A DNA stretch of 64,000 bases from a virus (taxonomy: Duplodnaviria; Caudoviricetes): IMG/VR virus record IMGVR_UViG_3300027715_000011, positions 1 to 64,000 of that record, one strand, 5' to 3'. The position numbers were made by a program, and so were the translations under genes. The notes beneath the pieces were generated by a model. That model made no database searches. It saw only the letters and a program-made list of their open reading frames with translations, and had not been told where the DNA came from. This document shows positions 43,164 to 51,753 of this stretch, in pieces. The stretch's first letter is position 1. Each line of letters starts with the position of its first letter.

Positions 43164-44018
43164 TTGTATTTGTACTCTCCAGCAAAAGAATCTATCAGTA
43201 TACACAGGGATCTATGTACCCGTATAAAGAAGTCATCTCATTACAGACAGATACATGAGATGCATGGGCGAATGCAGGAGTATACTCCTCAATATACAGC
43301 AATGATGAATGCATATGCATCTGCCATGAAAGAGTACTTCAGGGATCCGTCAGTATACGATACCAAGATAAAACCCATTCTTGCACAGCTTACCCGGTAT
43401 GACGAGATGGTATCTCCGATGAAAGCCAGGATGCATGAGTATACAAAACACCTGACATCATCTGCATTAGACCGGGTATCAGCAAACCCTATGCATTCAG
43501 ACAAAGGATCATTCACATTTACAGGGGAGAATATAGGTAATGCTCAGTACACCGTGGATCAGATCAAACGTATCATGCATCCTGACATATTTGATAACCT
43601 TGTTGTTACTATACAGGTGAATGATACCGTGCAGCAGTCCAGGGTGCAGCCTTTATCAACTGGATACTTGGTTACGCTTCCATCACAGTATACAACCGGT
43701 GACGTGGCCCATGAGATAGGCCATGTTATAGAGATGTATAAACCTGACATTATGGTACGTGCAAAACAGTTCCAGGCATCGAGAACCAGAGGAGAGAACT
43801 ATCAGTTGTTATCCAAAATCATGCCTGAACATGCATATGACTCTGAATACTGTAGAGCCGGTAACTTCCCTGATCCGTATTGTGGAAAGATCACAAAAGA
43901 CGGGTCTACTGAGGTGTTTGCAATGGGACTTGAGTTTATGGTCATTGATCCGATAACGTTCGCTCATGTTGATCCTGAGTACTTCCAGATGATACTTGAC
44001 TGTATTAGAGGTGTCTGA
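43164..44018 (+). CDS. HExxH zincin-like metallopeptidase-domain protein 1
   Basis: AHEIGHVIE and FPDPYCGK...TEVFAMGLEF...DPEYF. Confidence 0.75.
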   Translation: MYLYSPAKESISIHRDLCTRIKKSSHYRQIHEMHGRMQEYTPQYTAMMNAYASAMKEYFRDPSVYDTKIKPILAQLTRYDEMVSPMKARMHEYTKHLTSSALDRVSANPMHSDKGSFTFTGENIGNAQYTVDQIKRIMHPDIFDNLVVTIQVNDTVQQSRVQPLSTGYLVTLPSQYTTGDVAHEIGHVIEMYKPDIMVRAKQFQASRTRGENYQLLSKIMPEHAYDSEYCRAGNFPDPYCGKITKDGSTEVFAMGLEFMVIDPITFAHVDPEYFQMILDCIRGV

Positions 44019-45652
44019 TGAAGGCATATCCGATAACGGTATGTGGGAATGTTGCGTATACCGATGGTATAACCTGGAAGTCAAAAGATCCTGCACTTGC
44101 AGAGTTCTTGAACCATATCAGGAAGAGTCTTGATATGCCCCGGTTGATGCATACACCTGATAAGGCATACTATGTAGCAGAACGAACGCTCAAACGTCTC
44201 AAGGAGTATGGGTTCTGGGATGCAGAACGGCATAGTTCATTCAATTTGTCGCGTGAATGCACTATAGACTGTGAACATGTATCATATCAGGATGATTATA
44301 CACCGTTTATTGATATACCAACTATCAACCCGGCATATAGCAGACATATCATGCTTGAGTCAGGTATCAAGCCGGTCATGACTGACGTAATATCACCGTA
44401 TCTCCCGGTATCGATGCAGACAGCGTTTACAGCGGTGATCACCGGTGCCATGAATCAGGTCACAACATCAATACAGGAGAGAGATAACAATTCTGATGAT
44501 ATCATCAGTGAACTTGATATATACTTCACGGCAACAAAACCCCTTCCATCAGGTTTGACAATATTCACCCCTCTGATAGCTGATGGATCACCCGGGGATC
44601 AGGTGGATGTTCCTGAGTACATTACTGGATCGCTCAGCTCAAAGGAGATAGACGGAAGGTATTGTGAGATACATGCTGATGGATTCTTAAAAGGGGCATT
44701 CATTGATGATCCACGGTATCTTATTATCCTGAACCGTGGGATGAAGTACAGGATTGACGCTGCTGACTCTATCAAGGTGGTGCTCACACCGGTAGGGGTA
44801 TGTGACACCCCTGATGTAAAGGTGACGTATGCCCCGTCTCCAGAGGCTGAAGAGGTATATAATGCCATTAAAGGGCATGTTATGTCAGAGTCAGACATCA
44901 ATACATCTGCTGATGCATATGCAAAAGAGGTGGACGATCGGCTTGCCAGGTGGCGTATCATGCCTCATACTGATCTTGCATATACCCCTGAACATAAGTC
45001 ATGGTTTACCAGATCAAAAGAGTATGTGAAGAGGATGCGTGAGTTTATCAGACAGGCGCAGCATGAGACGTTGTCAACCGGTACAGTGGGGCATCTTATA
45101 TACCGGCTATCAGGTGACGCTACCCTGGATGATGAGACTGTTCAGTCAATAAACCGTATAACGATATATCCAGTAATTGACTGGTATAAGACTCATCTCC
45201 CGCAGAAACTCCTAGACCGGATACTGGTCACCATCATCTGCCAGGATGAGGACGGAAGATCCGCGATGGTAGGGTATGACGAGTATCAGGAGATATACCT
45301 GAAGTATCAGGCCTATGATGATCCGTCAGTATTAGCTCATGAGATGGGTCATGTCATTGAGATGTGTAACATGGGTGTAAGGCAGGCGGTGCTCAGGTTT
45401 CTTGCATTCAGAGCAGGATCAACCAGGCTTATACGTATGTCTGATGCGTATCCTGACTGGGGATATGGAGAGGACGAGATGGCATACCCTGATCATTTTC
45501 CGAATCCGTACTGTGGAAAGATCTATGATGATATGAGTACAGAACTCATCTCAATGGGAATAGAGTATATGTTTCGTGATCCTGCAACATTTATGGTTAA
45601 AGATCCTGAATACTTTATGTTTATGGTTGATGTGATTAAGGGGAGATACTGA
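44018..45652 (+). CDS. Modular protein: partner domain, degenerate ART-like domain, HExxH zincin
   Basis: TGATG coupling; N-terminal DGITWKSKDPAL; ILNRGMKYRID; AHEMGHVIE...FPNPYCGK.Y...TELISMG. Confidence 0.75.
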   Translation: MKAYPITVCGNVAYTDGITWKSKDPALAEFLNHIRKSLDMPRLMHTPDKAYYVAERTLKRLKEYGFWDAERHSSFNLSRECTIDCEHVSYQDDYTPFIDIPTINPAYSRHIMLESGIKPVMTDVISPYLPVSMQTAFTAVITGAMNQVTTSIQERDNNSDDIISELDIYFTATKPLPSGLTIFTPLIADGSPGDQVDVPEYITGSLSSKEIDGRYCEIHADGFLKGAFIDDPRYLIILNRGMKYRIDAADSIKVVLTPVGVCDTPDVKVTYAPSPEAEEVYNAIKGHVMSESDINTSADAYAKEVDDRLARWRIMPHTDLAYTPEHKSWFTRSKEYVKRMREFIRQAQHETLSTGTVGHLIYRLSGDATLDDETVQSINRITIYPVIDWYKTHLPQKLLDRILVTIICQDEDGRSAMVGYDEYQEIYLKYQAYDDPSVLAHEMGHVIEMCNMGVRQAVLRFLAFRAGSTRLIRMSDAYPDWGYGEDEMAYPDHFPNPYCGKIYDDMSTELISMGIEYMFRDPATFMVKDPEYFMFMVDVIKGRY

Positions 45653-48057
45653 TGAAGATAACGTGCAACGGCGTCCAGGCAGAGATAAAAGGAAGCAGAT
45701 GGACATCTGCAGACAAAGAACTTCAGGAGATCCTCACTGAGTATACCGATATCATCCTGATGTCCACCGATACCATGCTTCATATCCCTGATGTATCCAA
45801 ATATATTACATCATTTATTGTTAATAGGCTTACCGATCAGGGAGTAACCTGTGTCATTACTGATCAGCATCCTGACGAGCCTGAACAGGTTATCATTAGT
45901 AGATCAAATAAATTTGATTTTGATAAGAAATATGTGCGTAGAGGAGAAACTCCTCCAAAATGGGCAAAACTGAAACGAGGGCCAAAAGGAGGACTGCATT
46001 ATGATGACATCGATCGCACTGTATCATTTATAGAAGACAGGAACTTCTCCCCTGTTCCAGAGACCACTCCTCATCCGGTGTATATGACAGATAAAGATGG
46101 AAACATGATATCTGTCACGTATATCATGAGTGTAGTGAAAAACGTTGTCGGGAAAGAGGGTACTCTGTTCACCATGTACTCACTTCCGTCTGATGCGTTT
46201 AATGCTCAGTACGGAAGGGGTGAGAACGATTCAGGTGCGTTCAGAGATGGAACAAATCTTATCCTATCGGATGACACCAGGCTGGGTCCCATTCGTGAAG
46301 AGGTGCGGGTAGCACTCGGCCAGATATATCAGATAGACTCGTTGTTAAAACAGGGCATTCTTGAGTATATCACAAACAGTGTTGCCATTATGCTGAATGT
46401 AACGCCTGGTGAGAATACCGAGCTTATGAGGGATATGCTGGATATCCTTGATATACCTGCTAAAACAGCCATATCGATATTTCTCTCACCATATGTAGAG
46501 CGTGATATAGCAGGCATTCTTACAGACCGGTTCAAACAGTTGTTCAATGATGGGTACCAGATTATATTTGACAACCTGGTCTCTGAGCTTGAGAGCACAG
46601 TCCCTGGTATGGCATGTCGGTTGGATGAGATACTTAAGTCTGTTCAGGAGAGAAAGCCGTTGTCAGTAGCACTGATGGTAACCAAGGTATCAGACGATGA
46701 TCTCAACCAGTTCACTGATGCATACCGGTTCAAGATCACTCATGCAGACTCATGGAAGAGGTTCACCGATCAGATAGCAAAAATAAAAGAAGATCCCTTT
46801 GAGATGAAAGTATTCTTTGAACAGGTACAGTATACCCAGTTTCACATATCACCTGGTATCATCGACAGTATATCAGTTCATCTGATTGATCAGGCATGCA
46901 CCGGGCTCCTGCCTCCTAACACCTATATGGCAGGTGTCCCGTCATATATCACAGATGTATTTGATACGGCAGTCATTGGTGATGTAGTATATCCCTGTAC
47001 CTGGATACATACCCAGTTCTCACCTGCAGCTGAACTTGTCATCTCGTTCAAGGCAGATAACACAAAAGCTGGTATCCTGTATCAGGATGACTGGAGTAAA
47101 GAGTATATTATAGACAGGAATGTAGGGTGGAAGGTTATAGACCGGTATGAGAACGTCATCTTTGTAGAACCGGTGAACCCTGATCCTGTACTTGATCTGT
47201 CAGAGTATCAGAGTGATATCACTATGGATGACTGTAATCGTGCAGTATCAGGGGATCTCGTATCTATTCTTGCGGTTGAAAAAGAGATGAAGTTCCAGAT
47301 CCCTGAAACCACATTGTATATGGTAAATGGTATTAAAGGGTTGGATGTATACAGTTTGAAAGATGGTGATGAGTTTGTGCAGCCTGATATTCAGATATGC
47401 TCACTTGCTCCGCAGAATCTGTCATTATGTATCGTTGAGTTTGTATACGCGGGTACCTGTGCATGTGTGCATGACTGTGTCATTCTTCCACGAAATAGAT
47501 CGTATAAGGTGATCAATTCCCGGGTAAAACATATGGTTGTTGATACGGGCACTCTTGACGTGGTGCAGATGACGTATCTCACGATACTCCCTATTGAGTC
47601 ACCTCTTCCGGTATCATGTAACGGTACGGTTATTATGGAGCAGATCCCGAATGTGATACCTGAGAAGGTAGAGCCTGGTGTCATCCTGTATAAAGGGCTT
47701 GATGGGTTTGGGTATACTGTATTGCAGGATCTTCTGATAGGTGATATCATCACCAGTGATGAGGATCACCTGTTTGTGTATGATTTTGCACTGGCATTAG
47801 ACCAGGCGGTTCCTATTCTTACTATACCGAACGGGAAACGGGTTATATTCAGAGTGGTACTGAAAGATGGTGATCCATTCGTGACCGGAGATAATGCGGT
47901 GATATTCCCGATGAACAGGCCTATGGTAGTAAGGGATATCCATATTGGAACGCTTGAGCAGTTCAACAGTCCTGAATCGGTATACCTGTATGATCTGGAG
48001 TATATCGACTCCCCGGTTGCAACAGATTATGAGTATGTTCAGTATCTGGAGATGTGA
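45652..48057 (+). CDS. 801-aa modular protein: partner domain, shared motif, three degenerate ART-like repeats
   Basis: GSRWTSADKEL; KYVRRGETPPKWAKLKRGPKGGLHY; repeats ending IIDRNVGWKVID, ILPRNRSYKVIN and IFPMNRPMVVRD. Confidence 0.75.
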   Translation: MKITCNGVQAEIKGSRWTSADKELQEILTEYTDIILMSTDTMLHIPDVSKYITSFIVNRLTDQGVTCVITDQHPDEPEQVIISRSNKFDFDKKYVRRGETPPKWAKLKRGPKGGLHYDDIDRTVSFIEDRNFSPVPETTPHPVYMTDKDGNMISVTYIMSVVKNVVGKEGTLFTMYSLPSDAFNAQYGRGENDSGAFRDGTNLILSDDTRLGPIREEVRVALGQIYQIDSLLKQGILEYITNSVAIMLNVTPGENTELMRDMLDILDIPAKTAISIFLSPYVERDIAGILTDRFKQLFNDGYQIIFDNLVSELESTVPGMACRLDEILKSVQERKPLSVALMVTKVSDDDLNQFTDAYRFKITHADSWKRFTDQIAKIKEDPFEMKVFFEQVQYTQFHISPGIIDSISVHLIDQACTGLLPPNTYMAGVPSYITDVFDTAVIGDVVYPCTWIHTQFSPAAELVISFKADNTKAGILYQDDWSKEYIIDRNVGWKVIDRYENVIFVEPVNPDPVLDLSEYQSDITMDDCNRAVSGDLVSILAVEKEMKFQIPETTLYMVNGIKGLDVYSLKDGDEFVQPDIQICSLAPQNLSLCIVEFVYAGTCACVHDCVILPRNRSYKVINSRVKHMVVDTGTLDVVQMTYLTILPIESPLPVSCNGTVIMEQIPNVIPEKVEPGVILYKGLDGFGYTVLQDLLIGDIITSDEDHLFVYDFALALDQAVPILTIPNGKRVIFRVVLKDGDPFVTGDNAVIFPMNRPMVVRDIHIGTLEQFNSPESVYLYDLEYIDSPVATDYEYVQYLEM

Positions 48058-48254
48058 GTATGTATATCATCGAGCATGTGGATCTGTTTACGAAAGAAAA
48101 TTTGATGTATTTAAACAAATGTGCATTAGATCGAACCTTGTCGATCTATAAGGGGAATGTTATTCCCCTAACCAGTGATAACGCTGAAGAATACACAGAG
48201 AATGATACTGATACAGGGGAAGAAACTTCCCCTTACTATATGGGGATGATCTGA
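48054..48254 (+). CDS. Small hypothetical protein
   Basis: 66-aa ORF bridging 48057 and 48255. Confidence 0.45.
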   Translation: MSMYIIEHVDLFTKENLMYLNKCALDRTLSIYKGNVIPLTSDNAEEYTENDTDTGEETSPYYMGMI

Positions 48255-50192
48255 ATGGTAGATCTTCGCAAGGTGTATGTCACCAAGAATCCTAAGCTTG
48301 CACCGAAGGGTGCCAAACTCATCACAACCAAGAGGAATGCGGTCTATTACGATACTGATGATCTTAAAGGCGTAAAGACGAATGATGTAAAACCATCAGT
48401 TACTACACCTGAAAAGAAAGATACCCCTCCAAAGAAGAAACGGTTATACATAAAAGAGGGAAAGAGGTATCATCCATCCTTTGAGGTGAAGAAGACAAAG
48501 ACCGGGAGAGGGTATATCGAGTATGACGGGAAGAAACCTGCTGAATATACCGGTATAGACTCACTTAATGATTTAACCACTCTCCTTGAACAGAAGTCTG
48601 GTGATACTACAGTCATTCAGAAGTATAAGAAGTTGTATTATAATGAAGAATTGTCTGATAAGACAAATAGGCATATATCACGTTATGTTTTAGAGAATAA
48701 ATCGTATAAAGTATTATCAGTCGGTGACGATATATTTGAGTCATTAAAAGGATATAAGGGGGAGGGTGCTATCTCTGATGGTGTAGGAAATACTATAGCT
48801 ATTATATACAAAAATAACATTATTCAACCATATAGGGGATTATTGGCAGTACCTTATATATCTGCACGAAGGTTACGGGAGACACAGAAGCACCCACTTC
48901 CTCAGGATATGATGGAGAGTATCATCTCATCGGTAATGGCAACCGATCATTATGCTCAATTTGGTGATTATGATCCATCATATGATAAGATGATTGATTA
49001 TTATCGATCTATTCTTGGAAAACAGGGTTCCCGGGATGTGGCATTGAAGGCTATCCTGTCACATTATGACATTAATATGAATGACCTGTATGCCAGTCTT
49101 AAGACAGCACCATATGACAACCCTTCAGGATGGTTATTCAATCAGATTAAGAAGGATTACCCGGAAGCGCCAAAAGAATTACTATCATCATTGAAGAAGT
49201 CGTTATCGAGTGAGAACTGTTTTAATGATGAGTTTTTAAAAACAGTATCAAAACTGGCTCATTTTTATGATCCAAAACTTGATTTCGGAAGTGATCATAT
49301 TGCAAATAATGCAGTTCAGATCTGTAATGATGGAATATATCTGAAGTATATGAGTGATGGCGCCCTGAAGTGTAAGAATTTTGGTATACTTGACAATATC
49401 ATCTTTAAACTTGATGATCAGAATATCCATACAAAAAGACAGGATCTCTATAAAGTAGTGAATGAGCATGGAAATACAGTTGTATACCTGCGGAAAGGTG
49501 TGAACGCTCTCTCAAAAGAGTCACAGTTTGATATTATTCATAAGGTTATGGGTGATCTCGTCTACGAAAAGTTGAACAGTATCGGTGCATTACCGTTATC
49601 AGATCTCTTCACTGATGATCCTGAAACCAGGAAGGATTTGTTTGTTCAGACGTTTATAAATCAGAGTAAGGATGCTACTACGTTATCTGATGATGATATT
49701 AAGAGAAGGCATGAACTGAAAGCATTAGTGTATAATAAGATGTATACCGATTCTCCGCTGGTATATTTCAATACCACTCCTGAAGGTATGAAGAACAAGA
49801 GTATGGTAGATGATCTTGCACAACGATACAGTGATGTGAGTAAGAATGCAGAGCATGCCCAGCGGTTAACAATAAAGCTGCGTGAGACTATCGATCCTGT
49901 TGAGAGAGCACGTCTGGAGAGAAATATAGCAGAAGCATTAGGGTTATCTACTGATGAATCATCCCGGGTTGCAGAGTTGAGATCCAAGTCTGAACAGATA
50001 AATCTTAAAGCAACTGCATTACAGGAAGAGTATCTGAAACGGGTGAACGGTTACTGTGAGCAGACCGGTGCCGATCTGGATGATGTGCTTGAACGGCTTC
50101 CATTACTGGATCCTACAGCGGATAAGATATTTAAAGAGTTTAATGAGTTATGTAGGCAGGCTTCAGAGTATAATAATAGGCTCTTGCATTAA
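48255..50192 (+). CDS. 645-aa hypothetical protein with N-terminal shared motif and C-terminal coiled coil
   Basis: MVDLRKVYVTKNPKLAPKGAKLITTKRNAVYY, with a second degenerate copy KRLYIKEGK. Confidence 0.8.
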   Translation: MVDLRKVYVTKNPKLAPKGAKLITTKRNAVYYDTDDLKGVKTNDVKPSVTTPEKKDTPPKKKRLYIKEGKRYHPSFEVKKTKTGRGYIEYDGKKPAEYTGIDSLNDLTTLLEQKSGDTTVIQKYKKLYYNEELSDKTNRHISRYVLENKSYKVLSVGDDIFESLKGYKGEGAISDGVGNTIAIIYKNNIIQPYRGLLAVPYISARRLRETQKHPLPQDMMESIISSVMATDHYAQFGDYDPSYDKMIDYYRSILGKQGSRDVALKAILSHYDINMNDLYASLKTAPYDNPSGWLFNQIKKDYPEAPKELLSSLKKSLSSENCFNDEFLKTVSKLAHFYDPKLDFGSDHIANNAVQICNDGIYLKYMSDGALKCKNFGILDNIIFKLDDQNIHTKRQDLYKVVNEHGNTVVYLRKGVNALSKESQFDIIHKVMGDLVYEKLNSIGALPLSDLFTDDPETRKDLFVQTFINQSKDATTLSDDDIKRRHELKALVYNKMYTDSPLVYFNTTPEGMKNKSMVDDLAQRYSDVSKNAEHAQRLTIKLRETIDPVERARLERNIAEALGLSTDESSRVAELRSKSEQINLKATALQEEYLKRVNGYCEQTGADLDDVLERLPLLDPTADKIFKEFNELCRQASEYNNRLLH

Positions 50193-50230
50193 AGGAGAAG
50201 AACAGCCTGTCTGCTATTGAAACTGAAATA

Positions 50231-50827
50231 ATGGCATTAACGGGGGGGTTAACGTCTGACACTCCATTGATAGTGAAACAGTCAACATATCCTGGATATA
50301 CAGATATCCCTGATAAAACTGCATTTAACAAAACAGTAACGCATGTGAGTGATTGGTTTAGGACTCATGTTTCAGAGTCGTTATGGAATAAGATACGATT
50401 ATCAGCAGGGGTTATCACTAGCGGTAGAGCGCATTGTAACAGTAATACCAGTGATGGGAGTATCATAGGGATATCTAAAGGAGGATTTATAAGCGCATCT
50501 ACGCTCATTCATGAGATTGGTCATGCAATAGAGCATGATAACCCAAAGGTGAAATCAGAAATTAACGAGTTTTATAACCGACGTACTGCCGCATCAGAAC
50601 TATCCAGGTTAAAGGATATACTTCCTTCATCAGGGTATGATAACGATGAATATACAAAAACTGACAGTTTTCCTGATCCCTACTGCGGAAAGGTGTACAG
50701 TGATCATGCCACTGAACTCCTCTCGATGGGGTTGCAGTTTATGTACGAAGACCCAAACTTATTTATGAAAAAAGATCCAGAATACTTCAACCTGATATAT
50801 GATATCATGAAGGGGTGTTACGTATGA
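50231..50827 (+). CDS. HExxH zincin-like metallopeptidase-domain protein 3
   Basis: IHEIGHAIE...GY...E....D.FPDPYCGKVY...TELLSMGLQF. Confidence 0.78.
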   Translation: MALTGGLTSDTPLIVKQSTYPGYTDIPDKTAFNKTVTHVSDWFRTHVSESLWNKIRLSAGVITSGRAHCNSNTSDGSIIGISKGGFISASTLIHEIGHAIEHDNPKVKSEINEFYNRRTAASELSRLKDILPSSGYDNDEYTKTDSFPDPYCGKVYSDHATELLSMGLQFMYEDPNLFMKKDPEYFNLIYDIMKGCYV

Positions 50828-51093
50828 GATTCTGGTTATGGTTCGGGAATCATAAGGTCTATGCAGACTTTGATGGTACTGAATGGACTGCTGAGTTCCC
50901 GGTGTTTACCCTTATACTCAACAGACAGATGCCTGCTATTATAGAGGATATGAAAGGACGATACACTCCTATCCCTGAACTCTTTATCATGAACAGTATC
51001 AATGCAGCATTAGAGCAGTATAGCCTTAAACTTGAGCCTGAAACACCGTTTGTTATCACCGGTGAGATGCCGTGGCTTGAGTCTACAGTATAA
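50824..51093 (+). CDS. Stand-alone partner (immunity-like) protein
   Basis: ATGA overlap; FDGTEWTAEFP.F..ILN resembles the N-termini of 44018 and 45652. Confidence 0.6.
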   Translation: MRFWLWFGNHKVYADFDGTEWTAEFPVFTLILNRQMPAIIEDMKGRYTPIPELFIMNSINAALEQYSLKLEPETPFVITGEMPWLESTV

Positions 51094-51132: not shown

Positions 51133-51753
51133 ATGGATTTCAGATCTATACGCCAGAAACTGTTGGTTGATCTTGCACGAATATATGTCACGCATGGTAA
51201 ACCCATCCCGAAAGGGGCAGTGATTCATAAAGGCGCCAGGAACGGTGAGTGGTATGAGTCAACTCGTGGAACTACGCGGATGGATCCTGACTACTTAAAC
51301 CGTACATCGAATAGACATAATGATAAGCAGTATGCCATGGATTCTTATGGTCATGAAGAGGCATTTAATCATGCTCTTTCATGGGCATCAAACGGTGATG
51401 GAAGCGAATATGGATATAAATCACCTCATGAGTTCAAGAAAGGAGTAAAGAAACTGACTGATTTTATATCAATGTATGGATCATATCCTGAGTTTGGTGA
51501 GATGCAACGTGAACTAATGACTGCTATGAGAGATTCTGGATATAATAGTCCGTTTTCAAAATTGTGTAATTACTTCCTTGATCATTATGATAGATTTAAA
51601 AAGGAGAGAATATCACGAAACCCTGATTACAAGACTGGTGTGGGGAATGATACTGATAGATCAGAACATAAACGTAATACATATGGGGAACAGTGGCATT
51701 CTGAAGATCACCGAGTGGATAGGCGACGTAACCCAAAATATAAAGATGAGTAG
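51133..51753 (+). CDS. 206-aa hypothetical protein with N-terminal shared motif
   Basis: LLVDLARIYVTHGKPIPKGAVIHKGARNGEWY. Confidence 0.75.
   Translation: MDFRSIRQKLLVDLARIYVTHGKPIPKGAVIHKGARNGEWYESTRGTTRMDPDYLNRTSNRHNDKQYAMDSYGHEEAFNHALSWASNGDGSEYGYKSPHEFKKGVKKLTDFISMYGSYPEFGEMQRELMTAMRDSGYNSPFSKLCNYFLDHYDRFKKERISRNPDYKTGVGNDTDRSEHKRNTYGEQWHSEDHRVDRRRNPKYKDE

Follow-up and report, generated by a model that had tools for sequence, protein, structure and literature searches.

The 64,000-nucleotide (nt) stretch analysed here (the window) comprises positions 1 to 64,000 of the IMG/VR virus record IMGVR_UViG_3300027715_000011 (Duplodnaviria; Caudoviricetes), and its positions 43164-51093 carry an array of three cassettes, each consisting of a gene that ends in a metallopeptidase-like (zincin) domain with an HExxH motif and, immediately downstream, a small partner domain. 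The first two partners (P1 and P2) form the N-terminal parts of the next large proteins, of 544 and 801 amino acids (aa), and the third (P3) is a free protein. Phages carrying an enzyme together with a small partner gene are an already described type, of which the window is an unusual variant with fused partners; what appears to be new, as judged by sequence comparison, is that both fusions of a partner to the next cargo protein are conserved in a distant relative.

The genes of Z1, the 544-aa protein and Z3 close with a common domain of ~150 aa, which stops 0-2 aa ahead of the stop codon in all three. The domain is marked by the conserved motifs HExxHxxE, R, E, FPxPYCGK, TE..MG and DPEYF, and 34 columns are invariant across the three window copies. 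An earlier reading made by a model from the letters of the window (the sequence-only reading) had placed three paralogous HExxH domains at the ends of the genes finishing at 44018, 45652 and 50827, and these shared motifs bear it out, as do independent PHROG profiles that match all three copies (E = 2e-14 to 6e-29) and represent five PHROG families, one of them named 'minor head protein'. None of the array proteins had a Pfam match at E ≤ 0.1, and a sequence search of the PDB with the zincin profile gave chance ribosomal matches only. Ten residues (H, E, H, E, R, E, Y, E, G and D) are invariant in a 42-member alignment of the family and are kept in all three window copies; H49, E50, H53, E116 and Tyr105 are invariant in this alignment, and a Glu lies in the TE motif. 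Because the ten residues include HExxH, the Tyr and the Glu of TE, the enzyme looks active, as predicted from sequence. Pfam matches among the 42 members were weak: PF18818 in 4 (E = 1.9e-5 or weaker), the anthrax lethal factor-type model ATLF (PF07737) in one (E = 0.0027) and M90 in some.

An AlphaFold2 (AF2) model of the Z1 zincin domain (pLDDT 94.9) contains three strands plus helices. Structural comparison of this model with VIA-align identified PPEP-3 (9g0j) as the best fold (Z = 8.2, root-mean-square deviation 3.1, 116 aa), followed by the lethal factor catalytic domain (1yqy; Z = 8.0), PPEP-2 (6fpc; Z = 7.6) and Certhrax (Z = 7.0), and other zincins scored Z ≤ 5.5. Foldseek alone was weak (E about 0.035). 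As modelled, the domain is a compact gluzincin that is closest in fold to Pro-Pro endopeptidase (PPEP) and anthrax lethal factor.

The junctions between the zincins and their partners read TGATG (44016-44020), TGATG (45650-45654) and ATGA (50824-50827), and thus all three are stop/start overlaps, as the sequence-only reading had noted. Among the partners themselves, BLASTP linked P1 with P2 (E = 1e-7) and, weakly, P1 with P3 (E = 0.003), and returned nothing for P2 against P3. Since pairwise BLASTP firmly supported only the first of these links, relatives of the zincin were gathered from viral contigs, and a script based on open reading frames (ORFs) and hidden Markov models (HMMs) grouped them into 82 distinct zincin genes. 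A partner HMM built from 57 foreign downstream ORFs, with the window left out, was applied to 4,244 sequences made up of ORFs and six-frame pieces; it matched P1 (E = 1.6e-5), P2 (E = 1.1e-4) and P3 (E = 3.4e-3), and nothing else in the window fell below E = 6. Comparison by hhalign of each window partner plus its orthologue from a related contig (L102, described below) with 38 foreign partners gave probabilities of 96.9% for P1 (E = 1.5e-10), 95.7% for P2 (E = 1e-8) and 91.8% for P3 (E = 7.5e-7). The three segments, which the sequence-only reading had described as similar, therefore do align by profile comparison, as the HMM and hhalign both link them.

In the 82 zincin genes, the domain almost invariably closes the protein. 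An ORF positive for the partner HMM directly follows the zincin in 48 of the 82 genes, and 47 of these ORFs are small. Partner ORFs are typically 70-100 aa long and mostly start -4 to +10 nt from the end of the zincin gene. Ten further zincin genes are followed by small ORFs that are HMM-negative, several of them still with a terminal VY; behind the MuF-zincin gene of Streptococcus pyogenes, the next ORF (77 aa) was missed by the HMM, yet its tail is ENAIY. A terminal Tyr is present in 26 of 41 non-redundant partners (63%), compared with a background of 6.9% (p = 1.6e-20). Partners diverge faster than zincins (mean identity 19% and 34.5%, respectively), and the two divergences are correlated (Mantel r = 0.34, p = 5e-4), although linkage alone would also give such co-divergence. 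In the AF2 model of P1 (pLDDT 83.5), three strands precede three helices. No fold match was found for this model, either by a wide VIA-align search (best Z = 3.6) or by Foldseek against BFVD (nothing at E ≤ 0.001), and neither Pfam nor PHROGs matched any of the 41 partners. A neighbour-type search returned 26 small hypothetical proteins and no named homologue. A word-based search, which constitutes weak evidence, found no partner domains within longer proteins, and no zincin shared a single polypeptide with its own partner among 151 representatives of the family or the loci examined.

The fusions were traced in L102, a metagenome contig that is syntenic with the window at a protein identity of 29-61% (29-52% for the cassette genes). 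Its gene order is that of the window: a thymidylate-synthase-like gene, Z1, P1-X-Z2 (533 aa), P2-cargo (939 aa), an extra 812-aa gene, body-Z3 (928 aa), P3 (88 aa), a 206-aa gene and a methylase. The extra gene (12024-14462 of L102) lies between P2-cargo and body-Z3, where the window has ~200 nt of short ORFs. The 544-aa protein and its 533-aa orthologue have the same architecture and are 49-51% identical (53% in the P1 part); the 801-aa protein and its 939-aa orthologue are 36% identical overall and 59% in the P2 part. The fused partner domains are thus conserved at least as well as the remainder of their proteins between the window and L102. Moreover, contigs from a third study span both junctions and both boundaries between partner and body without indels. 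Being kept in L102 and crossed without indels by these contigs, the fusions are old and maintained rather than artefacts. That two partners are fused to the next large protein and one is free was thus correctly read from the sequence alone. The accompanying idea that read-through chains the cassettes did not hold, as these are gene fusions fixed in the genome that lie in open frames. Searches of IMG/VR with P0024 and with the alignment of the 801-aa protein did not add any other member of the fused lineage.

A leader motif, D(L/F)xK(V/I)YV..PKGA..RG..YY(D/E), occurs on otherwise unrelated cargo proteins. The 645-aa and 206-aa proteins begin with it, as do zincin proteins of other viruses, and in the 801-aa protein it lies directly behind P2. 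Because P2 directly precedes a motif that elsewhere is the N-terminus, a partner gene was apparently joined to a complete cargo gene. The motif may serve as a signal for packaging or as a site for cleavage. In the ESM Atlas, the central part of the 544-aa protein (44300-44803) lies next to ADP-ribosyltransferase (ART) exoenzyme domains that co-occur with MuF and portal domains (feature score 0.86, TM up to 0.74 by row), which serves as a lead only. Pfam ART and MuF profiles matched nothing in the whole 76-kb record (any Pfam MuF at E ≤ 1), and hhalign gave a probability of 0.1% for this middle part against the MuF regions of relatives.

The third zincin lies in a 198-aa ORF that is separated by 38 nt from the 645-aa ORF and is in a different frame. 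In L102 the equivalent of both ORFs is the single 928-aa gene, to whose aa 6-711 the 645-aa ORF aligns. Logan contigs of runs X1 and X2, which are possibly the source sample, carry T50177A plus an inserted G, and this change joins 48255-50192 and 50231-50827 into an 857-aa ORF that aligns end-to-end with the 928-aa protein (E = 6e-128). Z3 is probably not free-standing, given that the joined ORF is colinear with the L102 protein; the third zincin, too, probably ends a large cargo protein, as predicted from these ORFs, and the window assembly at 50177 may contain a one-base error or represent a minority variant. The zincin that the sequence-only reading saw in the gene ending at 50827 is thus real, and the 198-aa ORF in which it lies is probably the end of the 857-aa gene. 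A programmed frameshift at the junction was considered and rejected, since no slippery site is present in the 11 bases open in both frames and a one-base assembly difference fits better. The predicted start of P3 is most likely ATG 50824 rather than GTG 50815, and its 88-aa L102 orthologue (40% identity) starts at the equivalent Met. The start of Z1 is uncertain: the TTG-started ORF has 32 codons (43164-43259) that are absent from the database protein P0023, which starts at Met33, and gene callers also begin Z1 there.

Table 1. Positions of the cassette genes, partner domains and leader motif in the window
Feature	Position	Strand	Description
Z1	43164..44018	+	284 aa; zincin domain is the last ~150 aa (43566-44015); L102 orthologue 52% identical
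P1	44018..44257	+	partner domain, aa 1-80, N-terminal part of the 544-aa protein
544-aa protein	44018..45652	+	P1, ART-like middle (about aa 95-262, lead only) and Z2 zincin (45200-45649)
P2	45652..45897	+	partner domain, aa 1-82, N-terminal part of the 801-aa protein
801-aa cargo protein	45652..48057	+	P2, leader motif (about aa 86-120) and body without assigned function; no zincin
645-aa ORF	48255..50192	+	N-terminal leader motif; probably the front part of an 857-aa leader-body-zincin gene
Z3	50231..50827	+	third zincin; 198-aa ORF here, joined to the upstream ORF in L102 and another assembly
P3	50824..51093	+	free partner protein, 89 aa from ATG 50824; mechanical call from GTG 50815 (92-aa ORF)
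Leader motif	48255-48360, 51160-51270, 45907-46020		also in the L007 and L009 zincin proteins and the L102 orthologues

The window is part of a 76-kb record with an estimated completeness of 53%. It encodes a DNA polymerase, an anaerobic ribonucleotide reductase, a helicase, seven tRNAs and a tail-fibre-like gene, and the zincin array is surrounded by nucleotide-metabolism genes. Every long ORF of 43164-51093 is on the + strand (284, 544, 801, 645, 198 and 92 aa). No cultured phage was matched by megablast with the region, and the stretch has no listed RNA holder. Wastewater metagenome runs X3 and X4, which come from a different study and, although labelled 'RNA-Seq', are probably DNA, contain fragments that match parts of the array at 90-100% identity; this virus, or strains close to it, is therefore present in wastewater, besides subsurface and freshwater samples.

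The zincin belongs to a family that has no Pfam model of its own and comprises 7,539 cluster representatives at E ≤ 1e-3 in an exhaustive profile search. Among the top 151 representatives, the domain finishes within 5 aa of the C-terminus in 133, and about 21 contain 2-4 copies, the longest protein having 4,676 aa. Almost always, these zincins either close off the C-terminal end of MuF, portal or virion proteins or recur within giant polyvalent proteins. Domains accompanying the zincin were recorded in 79 representatives and included Phage_Mu_F (21), minor capsid protein 2 (2) and portal (2). In the giant multi-zincin proteins (P0003-P0020, up to 4,676 aa), the motif EKHLPGQHDQ..HG recurs in the linkers between the copies, and these proteins contain no internal partner domain. 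Cultured carriers include Planktothrix phage PaV-LD, Streptococcus pyogenes phage 315.3, Lactococcus phage 62503 and 150-kb Vibrio phages; in PaV-LD, ORF081R carries the record annotation 'virion structural protein', and next to it lies a partner, ORF082R (HMM E = 2e-25). Elsewhere, arrays of between two and at least six genes that end in a zincin stand in tandem (L038/L075, L023-L029, L039, L041 and PaV-LD ORF080R-082R), and the majority of their zincins have their own small partner. In these arrays, a zincin gene directly behind another zincin gene has no partner domain at its start. L038/L075 (IMGVR_UViG_3300017971_007885) carries at least six zincin genes on one 100-kb contig; none of the partners in this six-gene array has a terminal Tyr, and their tails finish in L or Q.

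Two bodies of earlier work bear on these cassettes. MuF polymorphic toxins of temperate phages have a metallopeptidase among their reported C-terminal domain types (Jamet 2017, PMC5576092; Zhang 2012, PMC3482391). The window resembles them in having the enzyme at the extreme C-terminus and a small, tightly linked downstream gene, and many zincin relatives carry Phage_Mu_F. It differs in that its proteins have no detectable MuF, three cassettes stand in a row, the virus is large and apparently non-temperate, two of the 'immunity' positions are domains of the next protein, and zincin and partner have no Pfam model. A zincin-like metallopeptidase (MPTase) linked to lethal factor is a hub of the polyvalent proteins of phages and plasmids, as described by Iyer 2017 (PMC5512222). 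The features given there for this hub (PF18818) recur in the zincin family: HExxH with a downstream Glu, a link to lethal factor by profile or fold, 1-5 copies per polypeptide, combination with ART, MuF and portal domains, and a prediction to travel with the DNA. The window copies have no PF18818 match, however, and only the four weak matches noted above were found in the family. The window zincin appears to be the metallopeptidase of this hub and one of the C-terminal domain types of Jamet 2017. Term searches within the text of Iyer 2017 returned no dedicated downstream partner with a C-terminal Tyr. With peptidase family M34 (lethal factor and PPEP), the zincin shares its fold (Z = 7.6-8.2 over 113-118 residues), HExxH and the downstream invariant Tyr and Glu, the last two matched by sequence pattern only; unlike M34 members, to which it is 14-18% identical, it is far smaller (~150 aa) and lies inside phage cargo.

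We favour, with about as much belief as doubt, the reading that the partner is a dedicated zincin binder that silences or escorts the protease, the fusions linking the cargo into a chain. The region would then encode a battery of virion-cargo proteins of the early-effector type built on one repeated module, in which a putatively intact zinc metalloprotease domain at the C-terminus of the cargo is translationally coupled to its small partner. The partner would most likely bind its own zincin and silence or escort it in the producing cell, in an immunity-like or pro-peptide-like role, and in most phages its conserved C-terminal [VI][VI]Y tail would probably be what touches the active-site cleft, which is itself conserved. 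A terminal tail that blocks a metalloprotease is known from the carboxypeptidase inhibitors of potato and leech. By pure analogy with these inhibitors, whose fold is unrelated, the conserved extreme C-terminus of the partner would lie in the active site. For the window, this predicts a non-covalent chain in which Z1 is bound to [P1-ART-like-Z2], which is bound in turn to [P2-leader-cargo], with a separate pair, [leader-body-Z3] and free P3, beside it.

Several observations weigh against this binder reading. Contact between zincin and partner is supported by neither experiment nor structural prediction. The window partners have no free C-terminal Tyr, their tails reading VSY-Q..., QVII-S... and FVI-TGE..., and for this reason partners of the window lineage may only dock or may need cleavage. 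Other arrays include some back-to-back zincin genes of which the first member has no partner at all. No MuF, portal or capsid domain was detectable in the array proteins of the window; given this lack of a head domain and the position of the array among nucleotide-metabolism genes, packaging into the virion is inferred only from relatives. Finally, toxin-immunity systems do not typically have their immunity protein fused to another effector.

A rival reading is a classical MuF-type toxin-immunity system acting between lysogens, in which the zincin would be injected as a toxin and the partner would be the immunity protein from a resident prophage. A C-terminal enzyme with a small downstream ORF, the MuF domain of many relatives and the presence of the module in Streptococcus pyogenes prophages would all suit such a system. 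Nevertheless, we regard it as improbable: the C-terminal domain is of one kind only, this zincin, instead of being polymorphic; immunity domains in fused form would be delivered together with the effectors; and the large virus has replication genes and tRNAs, while nothing in the 64 kb analysed points to lysogeny (no dedicated search was made, and the record is ~53% complete). The family also appears to lie mostly outside prophages, with 2 loci in a scan of 185,579 prokaryote species, each represented by a single genome, and 136 in viral contigs. These counts are not strictly comparable, because a single peptide pattern served for the genomes and two for the viral contigs. The polymorphic toxin/immunity array proposed by the sequence-only reading thus stands in part, in that the cassettes fit the class of MuF toxins and the metallopeptidase hub and a small gene travels with the zincin in most relatives, whereas the MuF domain is not detectable in the window proteins. 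Very improbable, in our view, is that the partner is a packaging or assembly accessory, for example a small portal or capsid adaptor, which does not act on the zincin and is merely co-inherited with the ends of cargo genes. Such a role would agree with the absence of a recognisable fold in the partner, with the absence of the conserved tail in fused partners, and with the fact that its binding to the zincin is only inferred. The partner, however, accompanies the zincin in every setting: behind MuF, behind portal fusions, within tandem arrays and here, in a non-structural region; partner numbers track zincins rather than head modules, and no partner follows cargo genes that lack a zincin, such as 51133-51753.

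It is unlikely, in our judgement, that the zincin acts in maturation as a protease for which the partner serves as recognition handle or substrate, so that a cut after the [VI]x[YI] tail would free the downstream cargo and free partners would mimic the bound product. The sequence-only reading had offered protease/cognate-substrate pairs as its alternative, for or against which the results do not speak. In favour of such a relay is the proposal of Iyer 2017 (PMC5512222) that the metallopeptidases of polyvalent proteins process them; moreover, the extreme C-terminus is the most conserved feature of free partners, P2 stands exactly ahead of a typical N-terminal cargo leader in the 801-aa protein, and multi-zincin polyproteins of up to 4,676 aa exist. 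Most partners are nevertheless free and leave nothing to release, and the boundary residues of P1 differ between the window and L102. Similarly doubtful is that the partner is a docking handle by which each zincin would grip, or later cut, the N-terminal partner of the next cargo. The fusions would then be the purpose of the arrangement, either ordering the effectors into a non-covalent train for packaging and ejection or letting a proteolytic relay switch them on one after another once injected.

The first minutes of a phage infection are decided by proteins that enter with the DNA, few of which have been studied. The zincin is among the commonest unnamed domains on such proteins, present in thousands of clusters without a Pfam model, and its partner is without any annotation. 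The fusions predict which proteins touch: Z1 with the 544-aa protein, and the 544-aa protein with the 801-aa protein. If the partner were a docking handle, this would represent a protein-level 'daisy chain', which has not been described for phage cargo. The conserved fusions are thus a natural experiment in which the inhibitor, docking and substrate models are directly testable, and cultured carriers of the module (PaV-LD, 315.3 and 62503) are available.

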